From IMG/VR virus record IMGVR_UViG_3300025889_000071: a stretch of 64,000 nt of DNA, one strand, 5' to 3'. Below, one piece after another: positions 36,266 to 58,104 of this stretch. The notes beneath the pieces were generated by a model. The model did not search any database and had not been told where the DNA came from. It worked only from the letters and a program-made list of their open reading frames with translations. Positions within the stretch are counted from its first letter, which is position 1. Each line of letters starts with the position of its first letter. The position numbers were made by a program, and so were the translations under genes. This DNA is from a virus (lineage: Duplodnaviria > Caudoviricetes).

Positions 36266-36309
36266 TTACTAAATAATAAAAAACTACCCAGTATATACGA
36301 GGACGGTAG

Positions 36310-39300
36310 ATGGCTATTAAAATTTCCAATTCTACTATTATCGATGATAATAGAGATATTCTAAATGCTGGAACCACGGGTGTTGGAACTATAACCGTTG
36401 GTTCTGGCGTTACAATTTACAATGAGGGTGGTGGTAGTGCATACATTGGATTTGCAACTCATAATGTTAGAATTGGAGATAGCACAACAGGTCAATCATT
36501 AACAAGCGGAAAAAATAATACTTTTATTGGTGTTGGTGCAGGACGTAGCAACACCTCTGGAACTAATAATATCTTCTTTGGTCAACAATCAGGATTCTGT
36601 AATACTTATTCTAATGGTTCTGTAGCAATTGGTGCATCAGCAGGATATCATAATAATGGTGATGACAATGTTTTTATTGGCCGAAATGCTGGATTTACTA
36701 CTGCTACTCGTTTTTCAGGTAATCTCATTTCAGGTTCTAATAATTTTATATCAGGTGTTGGAGCTGGTTCATCATTAACCTTTTCAAACCATAATGTCTT
36801 TATTGGTCTTTGTGCAGGACACTATACCACTACCGGAAGTTATAATATATTCCTTGGAAAATTTTCAGGATGTAGCAACACTACCGGAGGATATAATAAT
36901 TTCTTTGGGGCATGTGCAGGATATTCTAACACTAGTGGATGTCATAATAACTTCTTTGGACACTATGCAGGATGTTCTAACACCAGTGGAAAGTATAACA
37001 ATTTCCTAGGCCTCAGTGCAGGATGTAATAATACCGAAGGATGGTATAACAACTTCCTTGGTATTTGTGCAGGATTCAAAAACACCACTGGATGTGATAA
37101 CAACTTCCTTGGTCAGTGTGCAGGAGTTTGTAACACCACTGGATGTAATAACAACTTCCTTGGTGAGTGTGCAGGATTAAAAAACACCACTGGATGTGAT
37201 AATAACTTCCTTGGTCTTCGTGCAGGAGTTTGTAACACTGAAGGATGTCATAATAACTTCCTTGGTGAGTGTGCAGGATTCAAAAACACTACCGGATCAT
37301 ATAATAACTTCCTTGGTCCCTCTGCAGGCAAATGTAATACTACTGGAGGTTCAAATAATTTCTTCGGAGTTCTTGCAGGATTCCGTAATACTGTTGAGTG
37401 TGGAAATGTTTATATTGGGGAATGTGCAGGATATAATTCACAGGGACATACTGCATGGGATAGTGTTGATGCAAGTGAGCAATATAACACCTTTATAGGA
37501 TATAGAGCTGGATTCTCTACAGCATCTCCATATGGATTTTCGCGTAGAAACGTTGCAATCGGATATTGTGCAGCTGGTTCTATAGGAGTAGCTTTCCCTC
37601 AACAAGGTGGAATAGATTATTGCCCAATTTCCAACATATTCATTGGAGAATGTGCTGGTTATAATGCTAATGGCGACATGTATGATAACGTTTTCCTTGG
37701 AAGATATGCAGGGGAAAAAGCTTCAGGTTGTGTCACCAATAACGTTGCTATTGGACGTAGTGCTCTTGGTTATGCTGAAAATAATTTATGGAATGCCTTG
37801 TCCAAATCCGAGCATAATATAGCAATTGGATATTTTGCTGGTTATTTATCTCGTGATGGATGTTATAATAACTTCCAGGGATATCAGGCAGGATGTAGTA
37901 ACACTACTGGATGGCATAATAACTTCTTTGGACAACAAGCAGGATTGTGCAACACCACTGGATGCTATAATAACTTCCTTGGACGATGGGCAGGATGCTT
38001 CAACACCACTGGAAGTGTTAATAACTTCATTGGTTATTGTGCAGGATGTAGCAACACCACTGGATCCAATAATAACTTTCTTGGACAAGGTGCAGGAAAG
38101 TGCAACACCTGTGGAGGTTGTAATAACTTCATTGGATGTGCTGCAGGACGGTCCAACACCACTGGATGTTATAATAACTTCTTTGGCAGAAGGGCAGGAT
38201 ACGGTAACACCACTGGATTCCATAATAATTTTATTGGTCATATGGCAGGATGTAATAACCTCTCTGGAAATTCCAATAACTTCATTGGATATCAGGCAGG
38301 CCTGAACAACACCTCTGGAGATTGTAATAACTTCTTTGGATCTATGGCAGGAAGAGCCAACACCACTGCATGTCATAATAACTTCATTGGTTCATGTGCA
38401 GGATGCAGAGTCAACACCGGAGGTTATAATAATTTCTTTGGTAATTTTGCAGGAAGGTATATCACTACTGGATGTCATAATAACATCCTTGGCCATTGTG
38501 CAGGACATGGCACCTTTGCAATTGGAGAAACAATAAATGGATGCCATAACAACTTCTTTGGACAATATGCAGGGATCTCGATTACTTCCGCAAGTTATAA
38601 TAACTTTATTGGTTTTCGTGCAGGTGAAGGTCAGAAAAATGTATTATTTTACAGTAATTGTGCGACAGGGTGCCATAATAACTTCTTTGGAAGTTATGCT
38701 GGTCGTTATAATCTCTCTGGTTCTAGCAATATTTTCCTAGGTCAATGTGCAGGTAACACAAATACCACTGGTTCTTGTAATATTGCCATTGGTAGGGATG
38801 TAGAGCTTCCATCTGCAACTGGTGACAAACAACTTGCAATCGGTGATGGAACTGATCGTTGGATTAGTGGTGATAGTGATTTCATTGTAACTGCAAATGT
38901 AAGAGGATCCACACGTCAGATTGTTGGTTATAGCACTGATGCTACTTTTACACAACCAATAACTGCAGCCCAATTTAACACTATTGATGATATGGCTATT
39001 GAGATTACTCTTAACAGTGCTTCAAATAAAGTTCTTGTTACTTTTGATCTTACTGGAGAATTTGCTAATACCGCTAGTAATTATGATACTGGCATTTCTA
39101 TTCAAAGACATAGTGGCAATTATGCAGGTGGATTCATAGATGTGGCACCAGGAGAGACCGCTGCCGGATATCATAATTCTGCTGGAAGCAGAAATCGTGG
39201 AATAACAACACCAGTTGTGAATTATTCTCAAGACGCTGCCAGCACTGCAGAAAAACTATCAATTATCAATTTCCTGGATAGTCCAAATACAACTGGTATT

Positions 39301-42209: not shown

Positions 42210-42269
42210 ACTGGGCCCTGTAAAGTGTCCTAGTGATGTGAGGGAGAGCAATCAACTTCACAACACCAG

Positions 42270-42298
42270 TTGACAACGGTTCTCCGATTTGTTATACT
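42270..42298 (+). promoter_or_regulatory. Sigma70-like promoter for the DUF262 gene
   Basis: TTGACA-N17-TATACT with a TG extended -10 element. Confidence 0.8.
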
Positions 42299-42358
42299 GA
42301 CCTCATCAAACGAAACACTGTTTGATCTCGTATCCTTCTTCTAACATATTGAAGAAGT

Positions 42359-43597
42359 ATGCAAAAACCCACACTTTTTCAAACTTCAATTATGCAGACC
42401 AATCAAAATTTTATGATCCCGCTCAAGGAGCCTATTAGTCTTCTTGAATATGCTTACCTTCTGCTTAAGACCCGTAAGTTTTGTGCTCCAGAGCAATTCC
42501 AACGCCCTGAAGCATGGCAAGTAAAGGATCGTAAATCATTTTTTCAATCAGTGTTGATGAATCGTGCAGAAGGCACTCTTGTCTTGGTTGATATTCAACA
42601 ATGTATCGAACGTATGGAATATGGCGGAGATACAAGTAGCGATACTTATAAATTTTTCAAAAAATACTTTAATGAAGGGTTCAAGTATTTTGTTCTAGAT
42701 GGTAACAACCGTCTGTGCTTTATCACTTCTCTTCTAGAAGATAATTATCTTATTCCCGAAGGGACTTACGAATTTATCAGTGATGAAGTCAACGGAAACA
42801 TTTCATCATTTACTGTTCGCAAGGGAAAGCAAAAGTTCTCTGACCTGCCTACACGAGTTCAACGTGTTATTCAATCTCGAAAGTCTGTGTTGAGTGTCTA
42901 TACTCAAATTACCTTGGAAGGTATGTCTGAAGTGTTCCAAAATGTGAACTCTGGTGTTCCTCTTAACGCACAAGAACTTCGCAACGCATATTCTTCTCCT
43001 TGGGCTGAGTTTTTTCGCGATCTTTCAAAGGAGGTTGCACCTCTTCTTGGTTACACTCACAAAGACCCCATTTTCCGTCTTAAGGGTCAAGAATGGTTGG
43101 TTGATTGTATTGCCATGGCAATTGATGGAATTGCAATCAATGAAGTTACTGGAGAACTTCAATTTACTGGAGTTACACAAACATCTAAAAACAAACTGTA
43201 TAAGAGCACTTTCTTTACTCAAGAGGAGCAAAACTTCTATACTAATAAATTCATTGAATTGATGGATTTCATTTCTCAAATGCTCCATGATGAAATTCTT
43301 GAAGAAAAATCTCTCAAGCAAAAATCTAAAATCCAAAATCTTTATTGGATGATGACAACTGTTGATGGAATTGAGACCTATGATCAAGCAGTTGCAGCTG
43401 TTGAAAAGCAAGAAATTGCTTATCTTGACAAGCAACGTAAGTTTGGTGAAGAGGACAAAACCTTCCGTCAATGTTGTGAAGGCATGAATGCTGAAAACTT
43501 GGAGGTTCGATACACAATTCTTACCGAAATTCTTACCGAAGTGGTCGGTGAGCGCAATGATTTCTCTACTCTCAATGAAGTTTTTGAAAGTGTCTGA
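42359..43597 (+). CDS. DUF262 (ParB-like / GmrSD N-terminal) domain protein
   Basis: FQRPEAW...SFFQSVL, VLDGNNRL, EVFQNVNSGVPLNAQELRNA. Confidence 0.8.
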   Translation: MQKPTLFQTSIMQTNQNFMIPLKEPISLLEYAYLLLKTRKFCAPEQFQRPEAWQVKDRKSFFQSVLMNRAEGTLVLVDIQQCIERMEYGGDTSSDTYKFFKKYFNEGFKYFVLDGNNRLCFITSLLEDNYLIPEGTYEFISDEVNGNISSFTVRKGKQKFSDLPTRVQRVIQSRKSVLSVYTQITLEGMSEVFQNVNSGVPLNAQELRNAYSSPWAEFFRDLSKEVAPLLGYTHKDPIFRLKGQEWLVDCIAMAIDGIAINEVTGELQFTGVTQTSKNKLYKSTFFTQEEQNFYTNKFIELMDFISQMLHDEILEEKSLKQKSKIQNLYWMMTTVDGIETYDQAVAAVEKQEIAYLDKQRKFGEEDKTFRQCCEGMNAENLEVRYTILTEILTEVVGERNDFSTLNEVFESV

Positions 43598-44008
43598 ACC
43601 TTGCGTTAGTTAGGAAGGAGTTTCAAGGGTTCTTTGAGTAATCATTGGGCCCTTCAAAGTGTTTTAGTTCTGTAACCATCTATTCTATGAAACGAGAATT
43701 TATCTGCGTTCAACCAAAATCCAATAAAGCAAAGAATCGTTTTGCTAATGAGATGGATAAACTTCATTCTTGTGTTGTTGAACAACGCACAGGAGGAAAG
43801 GTGTTTCTATCTTCTATCAGTGGAAAATACTCTTTTTGGATGAGTGAATCCTCTGATGATAACTGGGACGTTATTTAGCACTAGGCATAAATTTTTGTTG
43901 CCAAATGTCCTGATTTTCACACATTTTTGATAAATAGTGATAGAATTATGAGGTACACCCATGAATCCGTATTCTACATTATGATGTTCAATGTGCTTGG
44001 AGGATATT

Positions 44009-44185
44009 ATGCACAATCTTATTTCTTACAATCAACTTGCGGGTTGGAAGCAATTTGAAACGACACTGAATCATTTCAATGAGCAAAGCGATGTCATCAA
44101 TGATTACTACCAATGTTTAATAGAATGTGATGACAAACAGCATATCTGCAAAAAAATTTGTAAGGAGGTGCTCAATCAAGAATAA
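44009..44185 (+). CDS. Small Cys-containing conserved hypothetical protein
   Basis: MHNLISYNQLAGW...DYYQCLIECDDKQHICKKIC; GGAGG SD upstream. Confidence 0.7.
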   Translation: MHNLISYNQLAGWKQFETTLNHFNEQSDVINDYYQCLIECDDKQHICKKICKEVLNQE

Positions 44186-44201
44186 TAATAATACATAGCC
44201 C

Positions 44202-44230
44202 TTGACGTAACCCGTCAGGGGTTTTATACT
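44202..44230 (+). promoter_or_regulatory. Sigma70-like promoter overlapped by an inverted repeat
   Basis: TTGACG-N17-TATACT; CCCTTGACG/CGTCAGGGG stem. Confidence 0.65.
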
Positions 44231-44238
44231 AAAACTGG

Positions 44239-44676
44239 ATGGTAAATCTCATGAAACTGCAACCTCTTCTTCTGGCATTAACTGTTTTTTGTTCTGCTGC
44301 TCCTGCAAGTGCAGAGGTTTATATGTATCATGAATCATATTGCTATGAGAATATAGAAGAATATGTGCCAGGGTATCGTAATCGTTGGGGAAGATATGTT
44401 GGTGGTTATGTAAAGACAACTAGATCTAGAGTTCCATGCCACAGACATAGAAGTTATAGATCTGAACATCATCACTATCATTCCAATAACAACAATAATC
44501 AAAGCAAATCTAATGGAAAGAAAGACGATAATTCATGTATTGAAGGAAGTATATTAGGTGGTATTGCTGGTGGTGGTGCCGGTGCAGCTTTGTCTAGAGG
44601 AGATGGACGCTTTTGGGCGATTCCTACAGGCATTGTAGCTGGTGCATTAGTTGGATGTCAAATTGATGGCGGCTAA
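44239..44676 (+). CDS. Signal-peptide, glycine-zipper membrane protein
   Basis: Hydrophobic leader; GSILGGIAGGGAGAALS...GIVAGALVGC. Confidence 0.7.
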   Translation: MVNLMKLQPLLLALTVFCSAAPASAEVYMYHESYCYENIEEYVPGYRNRWGRYVGGYVKTTRSRVPCHRHRSYRSEHHHYHSNNNNNQSKSNGKKDDNSCIEGSILGGIAGGGAGAALSRGDGRFWAIPTGIVAGALVGCQIDGG

Positions 44677-44940
44677 ACAAAAAAACATAGTCACTTATGT
44701 AACCATGAATCTGGGGCAAGACAATACGTTTTGCAAATATCCTGGTAAAATGGTTACTATAGGAACGATGTCAATTGCACTATACTGGTTAGTAATGCTT
44801 GGTATGGTTGTAAACGCATATTATCATCATCACATCAACGTTGATATTGTTACAAAGTGTTAAGCAAATAAAAAGAGAATCTTAAAAAAACGGATCAGGT
44901 CAAAAATTCATAGTAAAATATTTTGAATCACACATAATCA

Positions 44941-46931
44941 ATGACCCGACCATCAAAATCCACCGAACTCACTCAAGAAGAGTGGAACGATATGAAAGCA
45001 ATCCGAAATGCTATCAAAGAAAGACCACATTCAGTTCATCCTGATAAGATGGAGGCATTTACAGAGTATTTGATTCGTAGCATGAGGGGAATGGATTGTT
45101 GAAACTGGGCCCTTCAAAGTGTTCTGTTAATGTAAGCACCATTCCAATGTAGCATGATAGATTTAGATAAACTTTCGCACGAAGAAAAGGAAGCCCTTGC
45201 AGAAGATTGTGAGGACTATCTTTTACATCGTAACATTCCTCTCTTTTCGCATTCATATGATAACATCATTTTACATGCGTTAAGAGAGGGTTATCAGATA
45301 AAAAAGTTCGATCGTTTCACGAATAAACCACAATGAACAATAAAAAAACAAACAAATCAAATCGTCAAGAAGAAAAATTTTGGAATCAAATTGAAAAGGA
45401 AGCTTCAAAGTATGAAGTAACCGTTGATTATTATTTGGATGAATTTGTTATTGATAATCAATACTTCATGAAAGATTGACAAGGACTTCATTTTTTATTA
45501 TACTTTTGAGGTAATCTAACCAAATCAATGACAAAGTATTTCTACACTGTTGACCACTTCATTCCCTTTCCCCGTTCTGAATATGGTGGAGTGTGGGTTG
45601 TTGTTGCCGAAAATGATGAAGAATGTTTTGATCTGATCACTGCTGAAGATGAAGGAGCGAACGATGACTATTATGGTCGTCTTCGTGAAAACATCATGAA
45701 GGCACCAACATATGCTCTTGCTGAAGAGTATGATTCTGGTATTGTGGAGCAATTTACGACATGAATCTCAAAGATATTGAATTTGGTCATAAACCACCAA
45801 AAGGATTTCGGTATGAGGTAAGAGATTTCAAACGTAATGTTATTTCTATTTGGTTATGTCATCCAAATGTATACACATACAAATCTGAACCCATAAAAAC
45901 AATCTGGGGATTTTATGATACCAAGAAAAAACAATATCTTGCTCCTAAAGATTGTAAAACTGTAGGTAAAGTTGTAGATTTTGCAGATACAAGAAATTAT
46001 ACTGCGATGCAACTCAATCTAAATCCTCTAGAGAGAGCTTTTTTATGACATATACGCCAAAGGTTAATGATTATGTAAAATGGCATCATGGCGAATTTAT
46101 TGATGAAGGATGGGTTTATTTTCGATGTAGTGATTACATCACAATTGAAGTTGGAACAAAGGATAAACCAGATACATTAGTTGATATTCACAAGAAGACT
46201 CACATTCTTGTTGTATGTCAAAACTGGTATTGGCACGAGTTAGAGTATCTCCACAGTCGTGGGGATATTGGTGTAAGTGAGTATAAATCTCAAGAACATA
46301 GACCCATTGACCCTTAAATCATGTATCAAGTGAATTATCTTAAACCTAAAAAGAAAGGTTTTGCAAATCATTCAGCATCTTTCATCAAAATTGAAGATGC
46401 TATTTTTTGGGAGAAACTCAAAAAGACAGAGGGATGTAAGGATTTTCAAATTCTGGTTAAGTAAAACTGGGCCCTCTAAAGTGTTCCACTATTGTAATCA
46501 ACGATTCACACAAAATGGATTGGTTCGACGACATTCAAATTGAAGAACTTTCTAACTTTGATTATCAAGAAGATCCTCTCGAAGAGGAACTCTTTGAAGA
46601 AAACAATGATGAGAAAGCTTTTCAAGCATTTCTAAAGTCTAACTGGGATTTTTGATCTAAACATTTATAACTTTTCACCTCAACTGTACTCAAAATGAAC
46701 TCTTCTAGCACTCTTTACGAACTCCAAGAACTCAAGAAACTCTGGAGGAATCAATCTTTCTACTTTTCTCAAGAGCAAAAGAAACGTTATGAAGAACTTA
46801 CGAAACTTCGTCATGCTCGTGTCAAAGAATTGTATGAAAATGATATGGTCTTCAAACCTGGAGTAACTAAATAATCTGAATATATGTGGGCAGTCAACGC
46901 TGCAGGGGTGTAATGTTGACGTAAGTCCCAC
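44941..46931 (+). CDS. Cluster of small early-type hypothetical ORFs (e.g. 44941-45102, 45154-45336, 45333-45479, 45528-45764, 45761-46048, 46045-46317)
   Basis: Tightly packed ORFs, several with ATGA overlaps; promoter TTGACA-N17-TATACT at 45476-45504. Confidence 0.65.
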
Positions 46932-46938
46932 TTTATGT

Positions 46939-46946
46939 TATAAATA
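46939..46946 (+). promoter_or_regulatory. T4-type late promoter inside a potential hairpin/pseudoknot
   Basis: TATAAATA between complementary arms 46901-46914 and 46947-46960. Confidence 0.7.
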
Positions 46947-46968
46947 ATGATACCCCTGCAAAAGAATT

Positions 46969-47277
46969 ATGAAAGATGTATTCGCGTCCCTGCAAGAAAT
47001 GGAGTGGGACGACTATATCCCACCCGAAGATATTATCTCCATTCATGATACCGACTTCACAAAACTTCCACGCTGCGAATGGAAGACTAAAAGGTATTGG
47101 TGGAATAATGGAGTTGATGAAACATTGCAAGAAAAATGTCCTCCTGGATGGAAAAGGGGCAGGGCAATGAGTGAAGAGCATAAAAATAAATTTAAATGTC
47201 AACCTGGCAGGCAAAAAGGTATCCCAAAAAATACAAACAGAAAAAGAGACAGTAAAGGGAGAGTTTGTGGCAGTTGA
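46969..47277 (+). CDS. Protein resembling the DNA-binding tail of homing endonucleases (NUMOD3-like), no nuclease domain
   Basis: WWNNGVDE....CPPGWKRGR and MSEEHKNKF motifs. Confidence 0.55.
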   Translation: MKDVFASLQEMEWDDYIPPEDIISIHDTDFTKLPRCEWKTKRYWWNNGVDETLQEKCPPGWKRGRAMSEEHKNKFKCQPGRQKGIPKNTNRKRDSKGRVCGS

Positions 47278-47344
47278 AGAGGTGTCCCTGACCCCTTGAC
47301 TTCTAGCGGCAATAAATATAAGATATGAGTAGTCAAGAACACCA

Positions 47345-47914
47345 ATGAAAACCTTTTCTTCTTTTTTAGCAGAAGTTTATGATCGTGATGTCATGGGTTC
47401 TTCACAAATTCGCAAACAAGGCGAAGGTGGAAGAGTTGGAGCTGATCGTAGAAAGACAGAAGCTGAAAAGCGTCGCACCAAGTTAGGACCAGGAGGAACA
47501 AGAGTTCCTGCTAAATCTTACAAACCAAGAAAAGATATTGGTACGCAAAGACAAGCATCTACAAGATTGCAGCAACCAGAGAAAGAAAGAGGTGCTGCTG
47601 ATGTAAAAGCAAGAGCAGCTGCAGCAGCAAAGGAAGAAAGAAAGAAAGCAGCACAGGCAAGAATTGCTGCAAGAAAAGCAGGCAAACCTGCACCAACAGC
47701 ACAAAAACCAAAATCAAAAGATGCTGAAAAGGAAGGCACTAAATTACTCTCAAAAAAAGGGACTACTCAAAAGAAAACTGGTGAGAAAATTGAAAGAACA
47801 ACTTCACGCCAATACACCAGAGATGAAAAGAAAAGAATGGTAAGAGCTGGCAAGAGATTGCAAAAAGATTTGCAAAAAGGAGTTGATAGACCTGCTTCAC
47901 ATTACCAACCATAA
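47345..47914 (+). CDS. Basic, Lys/Ala/Arg-rich conserved cyanophage hypothetical protein
   Basis: MKTFSSFLAE start; promoter TTGACT-N17-TAAGAT at 47296-47324. Confidence 0.7.
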   Translation: MKTFSSFLAEVYDRDVMGSSQIRKQGEGGRVGADRRKTEAEKRRTKLGPGGTRVPAKSYKPRKDIGTQRQASTRLQQPEKERGAADVKARAAAAAKEERKKAAQARIAARKAGKPAPTAQKPKSKDAEKEGTKLLSKKGTTQKKTGEKIERTTSRQYTRDEKKRMVRAGKRLQKDLQKGVDRPASHYQP

Positions 47915-48022
47915 TCTCACTGGGCCCTTCAAAGTGTCCTTGTAGTGAGTCCATAATCGTCCATAACACCCTTGACACTGACGTTGAGGGTGTTATACTA
48001 TCTTTATCGTAATTCTATTTTG

Positions 48023-49213
48023 ATGGTCACACTTCGTCCTCATCAGCAACGTATTCTTGATCGTATGCTTGCCTATGATAAGGGTCAAATTATTGTGCCT
48101 ACTGGTGGTGGCAAAACTATCTGTATGATTCAAGATGTTGCAGAGAATTGTAAGCACATTGATAACGGAATGACCACGGTTGTGGTTGCTCCTCGTATTC
48201 TTCTTGCAGAACAACTTTGCAGCGAGTTTCTGGAGATTATTGATACAAATTACAATCACATTATGCACGTTCATAGTGGTGAGACACATCACTTCTCTAC
48301 CACTAATCCAGAGAAGATTGCATTGTTTGCTAACACTGCTCGCACAGCTGGTGAGAATGTAATCATCTTCACCACCTATCATTCTCTGGACAGAGTTCGT
48401 CAAGCAGATATTGAAGTTAATAACATTTACTTTGATGAAGCACACAATTCTGTTCAACGAAACTTCTTTCCTTCTACAGAGTTTTTCTCTCATGATGCTG
48501 ATCGTTGCTATTTCTTTACTGCGACTCCGAAACATTCTCTTACGGTGAGCAAACCAGGGATGAATGACCCAGAAGTTTATGGTCAAGTCCTGGTCAATGT
48601 TCCTGCTCCAGAGCTTGTTGATGGTGGATACATTCTCCCTCCCAAAGTTGTTGTAAAGCAACTTGATATGGTTCAGGATAAGTTCAAGATTTGGTCTCGT
48701 GATTGTGACTTTCTGATGCAGACCATTGATGACCAGCAAACTGATAAAGTTCTGGTCTGTGCTCGCACTACCAAACAGATTGTTGGTCTTATCGGTGAGA
48801 GTGATTTTGCACTTGAATGTGCCAAACGTGGCATGTCTTGGATGACAATCACCAGCAAGACTGGTGCTATCATTGACGGTCAGAAAGTGAACCGTGAGGT
48901 ATTTTTTGACACTCTCAATGCTTGGGGTAAAGATTCCAACAAGAAGTTTGTGGTTCTTCATCACTCTATTCTATCTGAAGGTATCAACGTAAATGGTTTA
49001 GAGTCGGTAATTTTCCTCCGCAACATGGACTTTATAGGTATTAGCCAGTCTATTGGACGAGTTATACGTCTAGGAGGCAGCCACAAGACCTTTGGATTGG
49101 TCTGTGTGCCCGTTTATGACTCTGTGGGTATCTCTACCTCCCGCAAGGTTCAGGCAGTCGTTGACACCGTATTTGAGCAAGGTTTGCCAGCAGTTTCGGA
49201 GATCCGCAGATGA
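48023..49213 (+). CDS. SF2 (DEAD/DEAH-like) helicase
   Basis: LRPHQQ, VPTGGGKT, FDEAHNS, FTATPK, LSEGINV, QSIGRVIR; promoter TTGACA-N16-TATACT at 47972. Confidence 0.88.
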   Translation: MVTLRPHQQRILDRMLAYDKGQIIVPTGGGKTICMIQDVAENCKHIDNGMTTVVVAPRILLAEQLCSEFLEIIDTNYNHIMHVHSGETHHFSTTNPEKIALFANTARTAGENVIIFTTYHSLDRVRQADIEVNNIYFDEAHNSVQRNFFPSTEFFSHDADRCYFFTATPKHSLTVSKPGMNDPEVYGQVLVNVPAPELVDGGYILPPKVVVKQLDMVQDKFKIWSRDCDFLMQTIDDQQTDKVLVCARTTKQIVGLIGESDFALECAKRGMSWMTITSKTGAIIDGQKVNREVFFDTLNAWGKDSNKKFVVLHHSILSEGINVNGLESVIFLRNMDFIGISQSIGRVIRLGGSHKTFGLVCVPVYDSVGISTSRKVQAVVDTVFEQGLPAVSEIRR

Positions 49214-49452
49214 GTTATCAACCAACAAATTCTTATATTCTTGAACCACAACAATCCCCACTAGGTTTTATTGTTGGTAACTGGAATGACCCTAATGTTT
49301 ATGCAGCAGTGCCATTGTCTGGTAGTAAAACACAATTAGTTGTTATACATCGCGGGAGACAAATTAAAACATGTCGCAATCGCCAATCAGCAATCAACTT
49401 TATTGAAAAACATAGAAAAGGTAAAAGTGTAGCAAAACTGCCCATTGATTGA
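49210..49452 (+). CDS. Small hypothetical protein
   Basis: ATGA overlap with the helicase stop. Confidence 0.65.
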   Translation: MSYQPTNSYILEPQQSPLGFIVGNWNDPNVYAAVPLSGSKTQLVVIHRGRQIKTCRNRQSAINFIEKHRKGKSVAKLPID

Positions 49453-49481
49453 TAGTGGGCCCTTCAAAGTGTCCTTATAGT

Positions 49482-50381
49482 ATGCAGAACAAACACATCG
49501 AACACCCCGAAGATTTTATTCTCACTGGTGACTTATCTGTTTTGGATTGGTTTTGTGAGGATGACAGTTATGTTTCTCTCAAGATTGATGGTGCTCCCGC
49601 TATTGTTTGGGGTATCAATCCTGCCACCAATCAATTCTTTGTAGGAACCAAATCAGTTTTCAACAAGAAACTAATTAAAATCAATGAAACGCATGATGAC
49701 ATTGATCAGAATCATTCTGGCAATGTTGCTAACATATTACACCATTGTTTTGATTACCTTCCTCGTATCAACGGGATTATTCAAGGTGATTTTATTGGGT
49801 TCGGTGGTAGTGATACTTTTCAGCCCAATACGATTACTTACAAGTTTCCGGAGACGATAACTCAAAACATTATCATTGCTCCACACACTTTTTATACGGC
49901 AGAGCATGATCTTCGAGATGCTATTGCACAACCATTGAAGTTCACTATCACTGACACAATGTATTGTAAGATTGTGCATCCTGATGCGTGGATTCTTGAT
50001 GACATTGATTTGCACAAGTCTGCACGATTTGCACGTCAGATGTCAACTCTGGTTGAATTTGCGACACCAAAGCAACTTCCACTCATCAAGAAAGTTCTCA
50101 ATACCTACTTCAAGATTGGTGCAGAGATTGATGAGGATGAAATTGCATATATTGCACAATGTGATGTCAACCTGATTCGGCTTTGGAAGTTGGTAAGGTC
50201 TATCAAACAGGATATGCTTTACATGTGTCAGAATGATTCTGATATGCAATGTGAAATCAATGATGAAGAAGTTGATCATGAAGGTTATGTTTGCACAAAT
50301 CAGTTTGGTACATACAAACTGGTAGATCGCGAGGTCTTTAGTCGCCAAAATTTTATTAACGATAAAGTATGGGCCCCTTAA
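49482..50381 (+). CDS. Conserved hypothetical protein with a KxDG ligase/nucleotidyltransferase-like motif
   Basis: MQNKHIEHPED...SLKIDGAPAIVWG...FFVGTKSVFN...IIQGDF...HEGYV...YKLVDR..FS. Confidence 0.6.
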   Translation: MQNKHIEHPEDFILTGDLSVLDWFCEDDSYVSLKIDGAPAIVWGINPATNQFFVGTKSVFNKKLIKINETHDDIDQNHSGNVANILHHCFDYLPRINGIIQGDFIGFGGSDTFQPNTITYKFPETITQNIIIAPHTFYTAEHDLRDAIAQPLKFTITDTMYCKIVHPDAWILDDIDLHKSARFARQMSTLVEFATPKQLPLIKKVLNTYFKIGAEIDEDEIAYIAQCDVNLIRLWKLVRSIKQDMLYMCQNDSDMQCEINDEEVDHEGYVCTNQFGTYKLVDREVFSRQNFINDKVWAP

Positions 50382-50410
50382 AGTGTCCTATTGATGAGAA
50401 CGAAATTATC

Positions 50411-50986
50411 ATGAATCTAACTGCAATCGTTGAACTCTATGAGACTGAAGTTGATCAACTTCCCCAGACTCATTTTGAGTTAGGTGGTGGTGCTGCTCGT
50501 TCTGAATCTGGTTTGGTTTATGAGAACCTGATTGAACGTACTTGTAATGAACTGGCTTTAGATGCCCGCAAAAATGATTACAAAAGCACTGAAGTAGTTG
50601 ATGGCACTTGCCTGAAGAATCTTCAAGTTGATAAGCACATCTATCGTAATGGTGTGATGGTAAAAGCAGTAGAATCTAAAACATATTTGGATGCTTGCTA
50701 TCTGAAACGTGCTGTAATGGATTTCATCGAACTGGAGCAATCTCCTGAAGTTCCTGAATGGGTAGAGTACGCAATCTTTGCAGGACAAAATGCTTGTGGT
50801 AAAGATGCTTTTGCATACTATCAAGCATTTTTCAAAAAGATTACTGGCAAAGAAGTAAAGATCTTCTTTGTGAATCCTTCCCGCAAGCGTTCATCTTCTC
50901 GCCCCATCTACAAGGAAGAGTATCGTGAAGATTTTAAGCTTGACTCTGTAGTGTATAATGAGTTTGTGGAATGGTTGAACAAGTGA
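50411..50986 (+). CDS. Putative PD-(D/E)XK (type II restriction-like) endonuclease
   Basis: YENL...QVDKHI...AVESKTYLD catalytic spacing; coupled to the methyltransferase by TGATG overlap. Confidence 0.6.
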   Translation: MNLTAIVELYETEVDQLPQTHFELGGGAARSESGLVYENLIERTCNELALDARKNDYKSTEVVDGTCLKNLQVDKHIYRNGVMVKAVESKTYLDACYLKRAVMDFIELEQSPEVPEWVEYAIFAGQNACGKDAFAYYQAFFKKITGKEVKIFFVNPSRKRSSSRPIYKEEYREDFKLDSVVYNEFVEWLNK

Positions 50987-51723
50987 TGCTGTATAACGAT
51001 GATATGTTCAATGTTCTGGGCAATCTTGAACCCCAGAGCATTGATCTTTTGCTGACAGATTTTCCCTATGGCACACTCAACAAGTCCCGTAATCAATGGG
51101 ATCGTGTGATTGATTATGAAAAGTTCTGGGAGATTGTTGATATTATCTGCAAACCAAATTGTGCTATCATTTCTACAGCAGCACAACCATTTACATCGGT
51201 ATTGATCTCTACAAATTATAGGGATTTTAAGTATTGCTTGGTATGGGAAAAAAGTAAAGCAACTGGATACCTGAATGCTAAAAAGCAACCGATGAGAGCA
51301 CATGAAGATATTGTAGTTTTTTACAAGAAACAACCAATCTACAATCCCCAGATGACAAAAGGTACTCCATATGATAAGGGTAAAGCTGTGAGGGATGCAG
51401 AACAATATGGAAAGCAAACTAAAGCTGTGCATGTCAAAAATGAAGATGGGACAAGATACCCTCGCAGTGTACTATATTTTAAGACAGCAGAAGATGAGGG
51501 TAAATTGCATCCTACACAGAAACCTGTTGCACTCTATGAATATCTGATTCGCACATATTCTAATGAAGGTGATACTGTGCTCGATCCTTGTATGGGTAGT
51601 GGCACCACTGGAATTGCTGCTTTTAATACTAATAGAAACTTTATTGGAATTGAACGTGAAAAGAAATACTTTGATGCTGCACAGGAAAGGTTAAATCTAC
51701 CACTATTGAATGCGATGGCATAA
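50986..51723 (+). CDS. N4-C/N6-A DNA methyltransferase (beta class)
   Basis: IDLLLTDFPY (motif IV variant), HPTQKPVAL, VLDPCMGSGTTG (motif I), FIGIE. Confidence 0.92.
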   Translation: MLYNDDMFNVLGNLEPQSIDLLLTDFPYGTLNKSRNQWDRVIDYEKFWEIVDIICKPNCAIISTAAQPFTSVLISTNYRDFKYCLVWEKSKATGYLNAKKQPMRAHEDIVVFYKKQPIYNPQMTKGTPYDKGKAVRDAEQYGKQTKAVHVKNEDGTRYPRSVLYFKTAEDEGKLHPTQKPVALYEYLIRTYSNEGDTVLDPCMGSGTTGIAAFNTNRNFIGIEREKKYFDAAQERLNLPLLNAMA

Positions 51724-51763
51724 TTGGGCCCCTTAAAGTGTCCTATTGATGTAGGTAAAGATT

Positions 51764-52279
51764 ATGATTTCACTTCCTAACCCAAACAGAACCATGATTG
51801 TTGAATCTACCAATTCTGAAACTTTTTCTGATTTCTGTGCTCAACGTGATGCACAGAATACCATTCAGTTGAATGTCACCAAGTATTGTTTTATGCTTTG
51901 TGATGCACTGCTGAAGAATTTCATTGATTACAGCATCAAGTCTCATCAACGTGCGATTGCTAACTACAACTACACTTATGGTAATGATGATTCAACTCAA
52001 TCAAATTATCATCAGGCATGTATTGAAGACCTGAAGAATGGTCAATGTGGTTATGAGTTCACTGTAGAGTCTGGTCGTAAGTATCACAAAATTATGATGA
52101 GTGCCAATGGTTCTCGTTCCGTTCATGCTTTTGTTGATAGAAAGACTGGCGAAGTTTACAAACCTGCCAGTATCAAAGCTCCTGCCAAAGGTGTTCGTTA
52201 TGACTTGCGATTGATTGAACAACGTGAATGGTTGTTTGAAAATGCAGATTGGGCAGGAGGGTATCTTTATAAGAGGTAA
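51764..52279 (+). CDS. Conserved cyanophage early hypothetical protein
   Basis: GRKYHKI...SVHAFVDRKTGEVYKPAS.KAPAKGVRYDL...ADWAGGYLY. Confidence 0.75.
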   Translation: MISLPNPNRTMIVESTNSETFSDFCAQRDAQNTIQLNVTKYCFMLCDALLKNFIDYSIKSHQRAIANYNYTYGNDDSTQSNYHQACIEDLKNGQCGYEFTVESGRKYHKIMMSANGSRSVHAFVDRKTGEVYKPASIKAPAKGVRYDLRLIEQREWLFENADWAGGYLYKR

Positions 52280-52734
52280 TGTGCTATACTGAACATGTTC
52301 AATTAAGAGGTTATTATGAACGATCAACGTCATTATCATACTGAAAGTGAGCGTAAACAACTTGATGGAGTTGTCACTGATTCTGATATAAATGGGTGGA
52401 ACATTTCTAAATTGAATCGCATGAAAGTTCGTGCAAACAATCTTCCTGATGACTCTCTGATTATTGATGATGAACTACACTAAACAACAACTTGTTGATG
52501 CACTTCAACATGAATATGAGTACATGATTCATGATGATTATGATCCTGATGTTGATATGACTCTGGAAGAACATCTTGAATGGTTACATACACTGACCAT
52601 TCAAGAATTGGTTGAAGAAACATCAACCGATGAAGATTATTATACGCTTGATCAATTCATGTATAATCATTCATGACAAGTAAAGAAAAACTTCTGTTCA
52701 TTTCATCATTCGTTTGGTTTCTACACTGGGGAAC

Positions 52735-53157
52735 ATGTCTAGCATCTACACTTCTGGATACGGTTATTCTAAAAAGCTCTGTGAGAGTGTTACCTCTTGG
52801 TTTTTGAAGAAGTATTATCCACGTCATAAGATTGATGTGGATATTTTACATCGTGGATTGAGACGTGAAAATGTACTGGGGTATTGTGATGTAGTTGGTC
52901 CTTCTTATCGACCAAGACATTTCCTGATTGAACTTCAGACCGATATGTGTAAGGAGTTGTATATAAAAACTCTTTTACATGAATTGACTCATCTTGCACA
53001 ATGGGTAAGAGGTGATCTACGACACCGATATGGAAAATTGTGTTATTCACAAGAACCAGTGGAAATCTATGACTATGAAGATCAACCACATGAAATTGAA
53101 GCACGAGAGGAAGAAGAAAGACTCTACAATCTGTACTGTAATGAAATCTTAACATAG
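52735..53157 (+). CDS. HEXXH zinc metallopeptidase-like protein
   Basis: TLLHELTHLAQW...QPHEIEAR. Confidence 0.7.
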   Translation: MSSIYTSGYGYSKKLCESVTSWFLKKYYPRHKIDVDILHRGLRRENVLGYCDVVGPSYRPRHFLIELQTDMCKELYIKTLLHELTHLAQWVRGDLRHRYGKLCYSQEPVEIYDYEDQPHEIEAREEEERLYNLYCNEILT

Positions 53158-53194
53158 TTGCACTTAAGAATTTCTTCAACTACAATAAAGAAAA

Positions 53195-56100
53195 ATGGAA
53201 AATGGTCAAGAGATGCAAGCTATCAGGGACTTTCTAACAGATGAGCAGTGGCACATTGTGATTGATGCTATCGAACAAGAAGCATTTTTATTGGATGAAA
53301 GTGAGGAGTATTTTGATAAGTGTGAGGACATTATAAACAGAATCCATTCATTGCTTCACATTACTGGGCCCTCTAAAGTGTCCTAGTTGTATGAAGACCA
53401 CTATGAAAGAAAACAAGATGACAACACTTTTCCGTCAAGGAATCAAATTTGAAGAGTATTGGGGCACTGAAGTTCGTGCTCATCATATGAACACTCGTTC
53501 TGTTTATCGTCTGCTGGAAGATGATGACATTGCGATCACACATTCCGCACCATATGTTGATGGTGAAAGTGTTGATCAATTTGCTGTAACTTTCACCGAA
53601 GTTACTGCATATCATGAGAATGGAAATGTGTTATCATCAACCACAAAAACACTTGGAGTTTATGATAACTGGTTGGATGCTTATTACCGAGCATTCTCTA
53701 TTCTAAACAAGAAAACATTAGCACAACTTGTGTGATCATGAGAATTGACATTGTAGGTCGAATTATCGGAAGCTTTCTGGTTGTTTCTGCTTATTTTGTT
53801 GTTTTACATGTAAATGTAACATTTGGAGTTCTGATGCACTTCATTGCCGATGCAATTTCCATTCCATTCTTTATACGAACAAAGTCATGGGATGTTGTAA
53901 TTATGTTGGCATTTCTTTTAATCATTTCAACTAGCAAACTGTTCAATTTGGGAGGAATCGTATCATGAAATGGGATGTGAAACTGTATGTTGCCGGAAAG
54001 GTATTTACCGAAGAAGTTTATGCCCGAGATGCACAAGATGCAAGGGAGACAGCATTAGCACGAAATCCCACTGCTAAAGTTATTGGAGTGAATGGGAGTT
54101 TCAAATAGTGGGCCCCTTAAAGTGTCTCATTAGTGTAAGCACAGTTCAGAAAAATGCAAGAATCAAAGTTCCTTCTTCACGGTCAACATCATCGTTCTAA
54201 TGGTTGGGTGATGAATGATTGTTTAGGTTACATCAAAGAAACAAAAGAGGATGCGATTGCTACATGTAATCGACTCAATCCTAACTTTGTGATTCACTCT
54301 ATCACTGTTGAAGAATGACCAAAGCAACACACAAACGATTCACACACATCTTTTGATTATGAACGAAACTGAACTCGAAGCTCTTGAAGTGATGGAAACC
54401 ATTGAGGATTCCGTTGAATATATTTGTAATGAGTATATGTTAAGTGGAGAGAAAGTTTGGACTATGATTGCAGCACTTGCTGATGCAAAGATTGCACAAT
54501 TTCCTGATTGATAATGAGTGGGCCCTTGAAAGTGTTTCAGTAGTGTAAGTCGTTCGTTATTTCAGTCATGCAACTCACTTCCAAAGATGGTAACATGGTT
54601 GTTGATTTCTATCCCGTCAAATTTGCAGACGGTGGGATTCACAATCGTTTGATGCTCAAAGTTGTGACTTTTATTGGTGCAACTCAATCCAAATCTTACA
54701 TCAACAAGAAAGATTTTCAGCATGAGGTTGATTCTCGTGTGAAGGGTTATGGTTATCAAGTCACTGATGATTCGATGATTCCACAACTCTTTAACTCTGC
54801 AATGTGTCTTGCTTGCTGATGTCAATTATTCAATCTTATCTTCACAATAAAATGATGGATCGTCTTGAAATGCTTTCTCAACGTGAACAATTGATGGAGG
54901 ACATTGATTGTATTGTATCGGCACAATATGGTCAAGGAAATGAAGAACTTGCTGATGAAATGATTAAGTTGTTATGTGATGCTGTTTGCAAAAACTTTCC
55001 TGCTAACTGATGTCATTTGTTTCCACCTTTGATCATACTAATTCCATGACTGACAACATCATCAACCGTGACGAATTGCAGGACAATCTTATTCATCAGA
55101 TTCTGGATGATATGGATTTGAAGACGATGTATGCTTGCTTATATGATTACATGTCTGAAAGCTATGACAAGTATTCAGTTGATGAAATTGTCGAAGAAGT
55201 CGAAGAGTATTACCCACAATTGTTGGAGGATGCAGATAACTCTTAAAACATGTCAATTTACAAAGATTACTGGACTAAACCAAAACCAACGAAAGAACCC
55301 AAATCAAAAGAATCCAAATGAAAACATCATTTTGTAATGGCAATTCATGGTCTAAATTTGATGCTTACTATCATGATGATAGTGAACAATGGACTTATGA
55401 ATTGATTGATGGACATCACCGCACAAGTTTAATTTACGAGGATAATGATGATGAAATTCTACAAGATTACTGATATTGAGTTTGATTTTGATTATGAAGA
55501 CATTACATTGGAGGAACAGAATGAAGTGATCGAAGGTGCCAAAGCTTGTCTATGGGATGCAACAAATGAGGATGATCTTTGTGATGTCATTAGTGACAAC
55601 ACCGGATGGTTTGTGAAGTCATTCTCTTATGATGTTATTCGATAACAAACACTGGGCCCCTTAAAGTGTTTCAGTAGTGTAGAAACGAAACAACTCTCTC
55701 AAATGTCTCAACAACTCAATGCTTCTATCTATCGTCAACTCTTCACTGATTGTGAGTGGGATGCTATCTCTTCTGCAATGAAAGATTATGCTGATTATGG
55801 TGACGAAGAAGCAAACATTGCTGATTCGATTGATGCAAAGATCACTCAAATTTTCAAACTTACTGCCTGATTATGTTACATCAACTCCCTAACGGTAAAA
55901 TCATCATGCACGATGGATTAATCCGTGAACTTGCTATTCAACGAATGGAAACTTATGATCGTTGGATACAAGACAATCGTGAACAATTAAAGATCGAATC
56001 TCAACAACTTTTCGATGATATGTTCGGAGGTTAATTCTTTCAATGACTCCGAAATCTTCCGAGGTTTTCCGAGTCGAGTCACGCCCCTAATTTTATCAAA

Positions 56101-56708
56101 AAACTATGATTCTTCTGACATCTGATTCTCACGGTTGTGTGTATACTATTGACAGTGAAGGTTGTTTATACTATATGCCCAAACATCTTGATGGATCAAT
56201 TAACTTTGAAGAACTTGCAGAAGTTGAATCTGTTGATGAATTAGATGATGAAGATACTTCTCAAATTCATTCTCAATTGATTACAATGTCCAAATCAATT
56301 GGTCATTACTTCTGTTAGTGGGCCCCTGAAAGTGTTTCAATAGTATAGGATACCATTTCTCTCATGCGTAAGATCGAACAACAAATGAACAATGCCATTT
56401 CTAACAACAAGTCCTGGCAATCTGCAAACACCAGTGTTGTTTGTGATGACAATGGTGTCTCTCATGTGTATCTTCATGGCAACAAGATTGCAGAGGTTGG
56501 TGATGACTTTGTTCAGATCTTTGATGGTGGTTGTCAATCCAATACCACCAAATCCCGTCTGAATGCTATTCTCAAAGAACATGCAATTGATGGTGAGTGT
56601 GTGTATCAAAAGAACTTCAAATGGTATGTTGATAAGTTCATTGGATGTGCCGGAACTTTCAAGGTTTATAACACTTTCGAGTTCACTGATGGTTTCATGT
56701 TTGCCTGA
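53195..56708 (+). CDS. Cluster of small, mostly acidic early-type ORFs (53195-53386, 53391-53735, 53732-53968, 53965-54108, 54568-54819, 55010-55246, 55445-55645, 56106-56318, 56364-56708 and others)
   Basis: Dense co-oriented ORFs punctuated by the TGGGCCC repeat. Confidence 0.65.
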
Positions 56709-56713
56709 TTGAT

Positions 56714-57517
56714 TTAACTCTCTTCTCTATACCATCTGCAACCCTTCCAACTATATCTGGAAGGGTTTTTTAATGCCTTCGTTACACCTGTAGCTTTGCC
56801 GCTACCTAACACTCTACCCGCTTCTCTTATACTATCAAAGTGATATATGATTTTCCCGTCTAATATACGCTTGCCATAGATTTTATGGGAGTAAGGTCTA
56901 TTATCTAATTTCTCCCACTTATATCCATATGCCACAATCTTCTGTTTGATTGCTCTACTGATGTTGCCAGAACCTCCTTTGATTCCTATACTCTTCCGCG
57001 CTTCAGTTATGCTATCAAATTCAAGAACTTCTCCCGTCTCGACATTAGTTGCTCTGACTTTTCTCCTAGCATGTTTACCATCACCGCTCTTATCTCCGAA
57101 TGGATTAACCCCTTGATATTTGTCTTTTAGAGTATTACGTATTGAAGCAATATGTTCAGGAGACTTTTCTTTCCCTTGCATAGTTGTTGATATTCTATCC
57201 CGAACTTCTTCGCTTATCTCTTTTGCTTGTTCTCCGCCTGTTGTTAGATTGTATCCGTTGTTAAATGTATCAAACTGTTCTATCCAATATCTCTCCCTAT
57301 CCGAGAGTTGCGCCGCTGGGATATTAGTTTCTATTTCACGGACAGTAAACATAGAGACGCCATATTTCTTGATTGCTCTATACAATGGTCTGTGTGATTT
57401 ACTCTTCGATTCTGTTATATGATGCCGCCATCTTTCGCCCACGGTCTTGATAGTCTGACCGATATATCTCTTGCCATTTACCTTACAAATGATTGAGTAG
57501 ATTGTCCCAGTTGTCAT
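56714..57517 (-). mobile_element. Free-standing GIY-YIG (Seg-like) homing endonuclease with NUMOD DNA-binding repeats
   Basis: IYSIICKVNGKRYIGQT...RW..H...ERYWI....TFNNGYN; KSPEHIASI (NUMOD3); FDSITEA and FDSIREAGR (NUMOD1). Confidence 0.88.
56741..56771 (+). terminator. Rho-independent terminator ending the early cluster
   Basis: ACCCTTCCA-loop-TGGAAGGGT followed by T run. Confidence 0.75.
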
Positions 57518-57794
57518 AAGATAGCGTGTGATAGAAGGCTTTACTATGTATGATAAAATGCCCCGCTAAATGGTGTCTATATAAAGGTTTAGCGAATTTA
57601 TTGTTAGTAACTCCGAATGCACTGTGTAGTTACTTTGGGGCGTATTTACAGTGTTTTTAATGTGTCTAGGAGTAGTGATTTTAGACTGCCCCAGCTTATC
57701 ACACCACCGAGAAATTGTCAACCCCCCGATGTCAGAATTTCCAGAAATAAGACTTACAAAAATCACACTGATTCTGATAAATACCTGCAATGAC

Positions 57795-57823
57795 TTGACA
57801 GAAATGCTCTGTTAGATTATACT
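57795..57823 (+). promoter_or_regulatory. Sigma70-like promoter
   Basis: TTGACA-N17-TATACT, upstream of the small ORF starting at 57853. Confidence 0.8.
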
Positions 57824-58104
57824 ATAAAAGTCACTCAAATCCCCCCAAAGATATGTCAGTTGCTTATCGCCAGGCACAGAAACAGCGTTATCGCATTACT
57901 CTTGAGCTTGATGTAATGCATGACTTCGACCCGCACCAGCTTGATTGGGAGAAACTCTTTGAGCTGGAACCGGCAGAGAAGGTGACAGCTTATGTGGAGG
58001 ACTTGAGCACACCGGACTTTTGGTGAGTTATAAACAGTGGGCCCTGTAAAGTGTTCTAGTAGTATAAGGGACGCAATCGGACGGACCCACTGACACCTCA
58101 CCGA

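Follow-up and report, generated by a model that had tools for sequence, protein, structure and literature searches.

In T4-like phages, promoter-early stem-loops (PeSLs; known from RB49/phi1, nt-1/KVP40 and PST/T4) are short, repeated and co-oriented regulatory motifs that flank small gene modules in variable early regions. Recombination between copies inserts, deletes or swaps these modules, and excised mini-circles have been reported (PMC2839356, PMC4122927); in cyanophage S-PM2, PeSLs were judged unlikely to act (PMC4503421). As for complete restriction-modification (R-M) systems, nine were counted in 831 phage genomes and virulent phages nearly lack them (PMC4176335), and cyanophage methylases are usually interpreted as solitary genes that counter restriction (e.g. 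PMC12801897). Here we describe a locus at which these two subjects meet. It lies in a 64-kb stretch of viral DNA (the window; IMG/VR record IMGVR_UViG_3300025889_000071), part of an 89-kb virus contig (G000) rated 42% complete, and consists of an endonuclease-like gene (open reading frame 1, ORF1) and a DNA methyltransferase gene enclosed by two identical 27-bp repeats. BLAST matches of window positions 49400-52400 come only from T4-like myoviruses of marine Synechococcus and Prochlorococcus (Kyanoviridae). We read the enclosed module as a mobile type II R-M system in virulent T4-like cyanophages, probably DdeI-like and moved by recombination between motif copies, and give this full explanation a probability of about 0.7.

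Chloroviruses encode both an endonuclease and a methyltransferase; the viral DNA is modified, and host DNA is open to degradation. The locus resembles these and the few phage R-M systems in that both genes are in the virus; it differs from the chlorovirus type in its host, a marine picocyanobacterium, and in the virus itself, a virulent T4-like myovirus. Also unlike that type, the module moves between early-region slots, and related phages have a solitary nuclease in genomes that hardly contain the candidate target site. With PeSL modules the locus shares short, repeated, co-oriented motifs that flank a small module in a variable early region, and its pair of empty and filled alleles has exactly the PeSL-type structure. 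The differences are that the motif here (TGGGCCC-N3-AAAGTGT) has no sigma-70 consensus and that a terminator scan found no stem-loop terminator at the copies at 49456, 50370, 51725 and 53365. The locus works like a PeSL module but is not filed as one, because it lacks both the stem-loop and the sigma-70 consensus.

The repeat, TGGGCCCCTTAAAGTGTCCTATTGATG, is present with 0 mismatches at the two ends of the module; no such match is expected by chance (100 shuffles), and the identity spans exactly 27 nt, with no extension on either flank. ORF1 and the methyltransferase gene are the only plausible genes in between, their stop and start overlapping in a TGATG (TGA 50984-50986, ATG 50986-50988). 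A first, sequence-only reading had singled out these copies as the longest identical pair and had seen between them nothing but a nuclease gene and a TGATG-coupled methyltransferase gene, and it was right on both counts: among the 91 pairs that can be drawn from 14 motif copies, this is the sole one at 27/27, with three at 25/27 and a mode of 20-21/27, so it is the best pair of the family but no huge outlier. The family itself is resident. On the 89-kb contig, TGGGCCC-N3-AAAGTGT occurs 14 times on the forward strand and 0 times on the reverse strand (0 also for a reversed-pattern control), always between 42.2 and 58.1 kb of the window, and the focal 27-mers are copies 7 and 8 of this array; the repeats are therefore not the work of a transposase. 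After every copy comes a TAnTrT-like hexamer, and then, about 10-35 nt further, a gene start; the repeats directly abut the upstream stop codon. The phages S-SM2 and SynMITS9220M01 have their own versions at equivalent places (GGGGTCGCCTAAAGCGTCCCTATAGTATG and ACTCACCYCTAAAGTGTCCCTATAGTATG, respectively): a core AAAG(T/C)GT and the hexamer are common across the cyanophages compared, and the 5' half is genome-specific. Of the 16 GGGCCC sites in the window's contig, 14 fall in motif copies. S-SM2 also holds a 39-nt identical pair of its own motif (L001, about 2397-2435 and 3331-3369) bracketing four unrelated small genes, a DUF7717 homolog included, so long identical motif pairs are not peculiar to the cassette. 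We take the motif to be a regulatory element of the early region, promoter-like and homogenised within genomes; its position 5' of 14 gene starts and the TAnnnT-like hexamer would fit a promoter.

A single-copy empty site, for which the sequence-only reading had looked to relatives, does exist. In L109, a metagenome contig of 3.9 kb whose flanking proteins are 97% and 88% identical in amino acids to those of the window, the DUF6267 gene runs into a single 27-mer identical to the window's, and the leader and start of the DUF7717 gene come next. The alignment tracks the window's left junction through the 27-mer and its right junction from the 27-mer on, and the two alleles differ by 1355 bp, that is one 27-mer plus the cassette. 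Two IMG/VR contigs with a 99% identical flank (L029, L030) hold the cassette in this slot, again between both 27-mers, and against these as against the window, the difference from L109 starts and ends exactly at the 27-mer. The flanking genes are also adjacent in S-SM2 and SynMITS9220M01, with one copy of their own motif between them, and in Bellamy, with a different spacer. At this slot the nuclease is absent from all of about 158 more distant DUF6267 loci, and to judge by these outgroups the slot is ancestrally empty. Exact-match scans of IMG/VR with the left junction and with the 27-mer matched only two sibling contigs, and no donor was found. L109 has four ORFs (positions 192-1790; 177, 80, 69 and 189 amino acids) between the helicase and DUF6267 genes where the window has one small ORF, so the neighbouring slot is variable too.

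The pair occupies at least five different slots in cyanophage contigs. Besides the window's, it lies between a small ORF after the helicase gene and the DUF6267 gene (L014), after the DUF7717 gene and one small ORF (L015), before the helicase gene (L016-19) and, in another phage lineage, after a 2OG-Fe(II) oxygenase gene (L020-23); three of these other slots correspond to positions of motif copies in the window (47921, 49456 and 50370/51725). The DNA shared with the other-slot contigs, at 82-84% identity, extends only from 50406/50411 to 51675/51695: it covers both genes and excludes the repeats, and in the other genomes the cassette is flanked by each genome's own version of the motif. Translation from an in-frame ATG within the left repeat (window 50369-50410) would lengthen ORF1 by 14 residues; we place the start at 50411 because the conservation of homologs begins there. 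In the long-read 'pilon' assemblies of L014 (4561-5357) and L015 (4001-4507), the methyltransferase is called as two ORFs (155 and 110 amino acids) and the nuclease as a shortened ORF of 168 amino acids, which could reflect assembly indels or decaying copies. Close homologs of the nuclease (63-91% identity) are plentiful in marine metagenomes, with at least 227 clusters at 90% identity (E<=1e-3).

ORF1 is a small endonuclease of predicted PD-(D/E)XK type with a BbvCI/NgoMIV-like fold. An AlphaFold2 (AF2) model built on a 22-sequence alignment is confident (pLDDT, the per-residue score, 94.8; pTM, the predicted template-modelling score, 0.90) and has the order alpha-beta-beta-beta-alpha-beta. 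The six best Foldseek matches are all BbvCI chains (E 3.6e-5), and VIA, a search independent of Foldseek, likewise places BbvCI on top, chain B at Z 13.3 (172 residues aligned, root-mean-square deviation 3.1) and chain A at 11.3, with 170-172 residues aligned, followed by NucC (10.8), PspGI (10.0) and Bse634I (9.9) and, lower down, by Cfr10I, SgrAI, BsaWI, PfoI, NgoMIV, EcoRII-C and AgeI in a list dominated by type II enzymes. Residues E38, D74, E88 and K90 do not vary, either among close homologs or in relatives with as little as 29% identity; in the model, D74 starts the second strand and E88-x-K90 lies in the third, hence the PD-(D/E)XK arrangement, and the nuclease type called from the letters alone is borne out by fold and residues together. 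ORF1 also matches phrog_10849 (unknown function) and, weakly, the PADLOC REase_II model over the catalytic core (E 6.5e-5). In the Atlas there are leads only, all below 0.9, to Bpu10I, MunI, ApaLI, BsaWI and HinfI clusters, and at 0.89 to a cluster with PF09549 in 13% of its members, the only trace of the RE_Bpu10I profile; that profile (PF09549) itself gave no significant match to ORF1 in a Pfam scan to E 0.1, the fold being shared over most of the subunit. Searched against the PDB by sequence, as single protein and as profile, ORF1 gave chance-level matches only; no name is attached to any of its more than 300 homologs in database sources, and two scans of 185,579 species-representative genomes, by profile and then by protein, returned no relative and no bacterial carrier. 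The BbvCI relatives Bsu36I, BlpI and Bpu10I cut sites with a CTNAG core, after the C (PMC6326814). ORF1 has the PD-(D/E)XK core and catalytic motif of this group, and the core shared by the group's sites is the very sequence depleted in genomes that carry the ORF1 family. It stands apart from the group in lacking detectable sequence membership (no Pfam match to E 0.1), in its length (191 amino acids against about 260-280), in being a single gene rather than two subunits, in a depletion of all CTNAG that favours a 5-bp site over a 7-bp one, and in its partner, a beta-class and probably N6-adenine methyltransferase.

That partner matches PF01555 at 115.8 bits, with a cut-off of 26.7, and carries TDFPYG (motif IV) at residues 24-29 and DPCMGSGTTG (motif I) at 200-209; with motif IV N-terminal to motif I, it belongs to the beta class, in agreement with the DFPY call made earlier. 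Its solved relatives include DpnA-like enzymes (7.8e-21), CcrM, MboIIA and RsrI, as against N4C enzymes at 3.5e-9; NCBIfam adenine models match it below their cut-offs, and these models and the solved relatives are mostly adenine-specific. The Asp in motif IV and the closer solved relatives make N6-adenine the likely target. Both genes are under purifying selection: the ratio of nonsynonymous to synonymous substitution rates (dN/dS) relative to L016 is 0.073 for the methyltransferase and 0.125 for ORF1.

A PF01555 gene lies immediately downstream of the nuclease gene, on the same strand, in 8/8 contexts read (among them phage contigs L014, L015, L016-19 and L020-23 and non-phage-like L024, L025 and L026-27), and in phage copies the stop and start overlap or abut. 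Two of the non-phage-like pairs adjoin an integrase gene (L024) and a gene for NAD-dependent DNA ligase (L025). In the distant clusters (L020-23, L024, L025, L026/27), the nucleases are 33-45% identical to ORF1; their methyltransferases share 66-87% identity with that of the window and have DFPY or DLPY in motif IV. Orphan beta-class phage methyltransferases (phrog_67; DpnA/YhdJ/CcrM-like), which are frequent in phages of many hosts, share the Pfam family and the motif order with the window's enzyme, at an identity of only about 50%; unlike them, the paired enzymes are consistently coupled to a nuclease gene and form a tighter group. As far as conservation and gene order can tell, this is the pattern of a co-inherited, functional R-M pair.

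The candidate target comes from the genomes. When the under-representation of all 4-, 5- and 6-mers was scanned against Markov expectation (strand-merged words), the 5-mer list of the window's contig was headed by the two CTNAG classes, each about four-fold low; in S-SM2 and SynMITS9220M01 the ratios are about 1.0. With five carrier lineages pooled and compared to 1.1 Mb of non-carrier sequence, no other 4-6-mers are as depleted as these two words (ratio 0.21 vs 0.92; z -5.8 and -5.7, next word -3.3), and the deficit is seen in each carrier counted (Table 1). The 121 cassette-less loci have a median ratio of 0.92, with 4/121 (3.3%) at or below 0.36. A search for a nuclease hidden elsewhere in five cassette-less IMG/VR contigs with low local CTNAG found none, as it did in five controls, and a positive control worked; the largest of these contigs, G001, is not depleted genome-wide (0.81), so the local dip is noise and the test is uninformative either way. 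In the window's contig GAATTC is low as well (17 vs 43.6 expected; ratios 0.91 and 0.69 in two other cyanophages), and CATG, GTAC and GATC are low, as in other cyanophages. The BbvCI-family fold and the genome signature both point to one core, and ORF1 most likely cuts at or within CTNAG, like DdeI. A 5-bp site fits best because all CTNAG are depleted and not just 7-bp subsets, and the small size of ORF1 agrees with it.

Table 1. CTNAG counts in genomes and contigs with and without the nuclease family
Genome or contig	Status	CTNAG observed/Markov-expected
G000 (window's contig)	pair	38/160
G011 (sibling)	pair	5/56
L016	pair	0/20
L020	pair	0/16
L015	pair	4/20
L014	pair	7/20
L026	pair, non-phage-like context	1/9.3
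L025	pair, non-phage-like context	5/14.8
S-CAM1	solitary homolog	3/447
S-CAM3	solitary homolog	4/462
AG-345-P14	solitary homolog	1/83.5
L109	empty-site relative	0/7.8
S-SM2	non-carrier	615/584
SynMITS9220M01	non-carrier	442/503
G001	non-carrier	280/347
G009	non-carrier	243/270

More distant relatives of the nuclease occur by themselves. The cultured phages S-CAM1 (KU686196.1) and S-CAM3 (KU686199.1) and the single-cell virus AG-345-P14 (MH319765.1) hold homologs (L212-L231 for the two S-CAM phages, L252 for AG-345-P14) that are 29% identical to ORF1 and keep all catalytic residues. In S-CAM1 and S-CAM3, a Dam-type gene lies about 95 kb from the nuclease homolog. The near-absence of CTNAG from these three genomes (Table 1) fits self-protection by site loss, and a host-driven cause may also account for it; the solitary homologs point to an alternative means of coexisting with a restriction enzyme.

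How the module entered its slot, and which allele is older, has more than one possible answer. That the 27-bp repeats are a target-site duplication (TSD) left by a transposase or integrase would suit an exact, sharp-edged duplication flanking an insert, yet we find it scarcely credible: no transposase, integrase or homing-endonuclease gene lies in or beside the insert, the 27-mer is a member of a pre-existing 14-copy family, other phages carry the same cassette without such repeats, and 27 bp is far above the usual lengths of target duplications. A transposable element with TSD was rejected on the grounds that the insert consists of two genes only, neither with a recombinase domain, and that the duplicated sequence is the resident motif. 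By comparison, it is close to an even bet, if slightly short of one, that the empty site of L109 is secondary: the cassette would then be long resident, L109 would have lost it by precise recombination between the 27-bp direct repeats, and the window would show the old arrangement. The CTNAG deficit of the 89-kb contig and of L109 takes far more time to arise than the 1-3% by which filled and empty alleles differ; both focal copies match the single L109 copy, as deletion between identical repeats predicts, and PeSL repeats are known to excise as mini-circles (PMC2839356). Against a loss speak S-SM2, SynMITS9220M01 and six IMG/VR loci (e.g. L058, L063), all with adjacent flanking genes, and the more distant DUF6267 loci, none of which has the nuclease, so that the slot would be ancestrally empty; moreover L109 is only 3.9 kb long, and the cassette could sit elsewhere in that genome. 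The same identity of both copies to the L109 copy, at 27/27 positions, also counts against insertion by motif recombination in its simplest form: it is not what one crossover with a diverged donor motif would produce. Identical copies may have come from an exchange with a sibling genome carrying the same motif, from later homogenisation of neighbouring copies, or from a loss in L109 through repeat recombination. The sequence-only reading had proposed a recently acquired cassette, inserted through the repeat with duplication. The mobile unit, with its at least five slots, and the empty site stand; the repeat, however, is a resident motif of 14 copies outside the shared DNA and no product of the cassette, and 'recently' is not secure: contig and L109 are both already depleted, so the lineage has lived long with the specificity, and L109 may be a precise deletion.

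The reading of the pair itself as an R-M system directed at CTNAG also meets several objections. ORF1 belongs to no Pfam family (scan to E 0.1) and has no NCBIfam membership, its family assignment draws on a predicted fold and one weak PADLOC match, and the similarity of the fold reaches NucC and the Can2/Card1 effector nucleases too. M.DdeI, the known methylase of CTNAG, belongs to the C5 enzymes rather than to the beta class. No methyltransferase gene adjoins the solitary homologs, and S-CAM1 lacks PF01555 genes altogether, so the nuclease can exist outside a classical pair; S-CAM1 and S-CAM3 are also nearly without CCGG (0-1 vs 141-159) and avoid GGCC and AGCT, and host enzymes of the same specificity could drive the loss of CTNAG. 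As to the motif, a sigma-70 consensus scan did not call it as a promoter, and the -10-like hexamer of the left copy is TGATGA, without the usual final T. From these points two other accounts can be drawn. The pair could be a true R-M system with another target, the depletion in carriers reflecting host or competitor enzymes met by the lineages: S-CAM1 and S-CAM3 do avoid other short palindromes as strongly (CCGG 0/141, GGCC 16/146, AGCT 223/554), a few cassette-less loci (4/121) are locally low and empty-site L109 has none of its expected sites. We consider this unlikely, given that all carriers examined are depleted, across several lineages and non-phage-like contexts, that depletion is missing from four large non-carrier genomes of equal GC content, two of them strongly avoiding other sites (G001 AGCT 48/289, G009 ACGT 8/138), and that the best structural match is, independently, an enzyme family with a CTNAG core. 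Alternatively, the two genes might not be cognate, the methyltransferase being an anti-restriction orphan and ORF1 an unrelated nuclease for host DNA or recombination that travels along. The frequent orphans at about 50% identity, the solitary homologs and the rarity of complete R-M systems in virulent phages (PMC4176335) would allow it; the gene order, constant in all eight independent contexts while nucleases diverge down to 33%, the overlapping or abutting stop and start in phage copies, and the tighter grouping of paired methyltransferases (66-87% identity, against about 50% in orphans) make it decidedly improbable.

Under the mobile R-M reading that we prefer, the 1355-bp module consists of one 27-bp motif copy, the 14-nt leader, the endonuclease gene and the translationally coupled methyltransferase gene. 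It is seated in the early region of a T4-like cyanomyovirus, at the motif copy usually found between the genes for DUF6267 and DUF7717 (Table 2). Recombination within motif copies would insert and excise such gene modules, leaving one copy when the slot is empty and two when it is filled. The beta-class methyltransferase would protect the phage DNA, with added protection from the purging of CTNAG from the phage genome, and the enzyme, expressed early, would cleave host DNA that is unmethylated, along with that of co-infecting phages without the module.

Table 2. Features of the locus (window positions)
Feature	Position	Strand	Basis
Array of 14 co-oriented motif copies, TGGGCCC-N3-AAAGTGT-N5-TAnTrT, early region	42212..58071	+	motif scan
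Left flanking gene, DUF6267 family	49482..50381	+	PF19782 E 2.7e-82
Left 27-bp repeat copy (promoter-like motif), now 5' of the nuclease gene	50370..50396	+	sequence, alignment with L109
14-nt leader, repeat to ORF1 start	50397..50410	+	cassette DNA homology to other phages begins 50406-50411
ORF1, 191 aa, type II restriction-endonuclease-like PD-(D/E)XK nuclease; E38, D74, E88-x-K90; candidate target CTNAG	50411..50986	+	predicted fold, conservation
Beta-class N6/N4 DNA methyltransferase, 245 aa, motif IV DFPY; start overlaps ORF1 stop (TGATG)	50986..51723	+	PF01555 E 3.6e-33
Right 27-bp repeat copy, 5' of the DUF7717 gene as in the empty site	51725..51751	+	sequence, alignment with L109
Right flanking gene, DUF7717 family	51764..52279	+	PF24835 E 6.2e-53

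The final codons of the DUF6267 gene (W-A-P-stop) fall within the left repeat copy. Upstream, at window 47963-47999, a hairpin with a 14-bp stem overlaps a near-consensus TTGACA-N16-TATACT promoter, directly after the motif copy at 47921 and before the helicase gene. Farther away, long arrays with a 51-nt (17-codon) period at window 21600-22500 and 33500-38800 fall within very large ORFs that presumably encode fibre-like structural proteins.

A wider hypothesis, which we hold tentatively and at somewhat worse than even odds, is that marine T4-like cyanophages use this unnamed family of small DdeI-like (CTNAG) endonucleases offensively, early in infection, to shred the DNA of hosts and rivals. 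Immunity would then come either from a coupled N6-adenine methyltransferase together with partial site loss, as in the window, or, as in S-CAM1, S-CAM3 and AG-345-P14, from near-complete purging of CTNAG from a genome of about 200 kb without a linked methylase; spread would proceed by recombination at the promoter-like motif, aided by the cutting of co-infecting genomes that lack the cassette.

The locus presents a predicted complete R-M pair that builds on an unannotated endonuclease family, is common in ocean metagenomes and moves between early-region slots of cyanomyoviruses. The exact pair of empty and filled alleles is a clean natural case of motif-mediated module shuffling in cyanophages, a process for which earlier documentation comes only from T4-like phages of enterobacteria, Vibrio and Aeromonas. 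Cleavage of unmethylated DNA at CTNAG, if the enzyme is capable of it, would give these phages a mechanism for telling their own DNA from that of the host during chromosome degradation, and for excluding competing phages.

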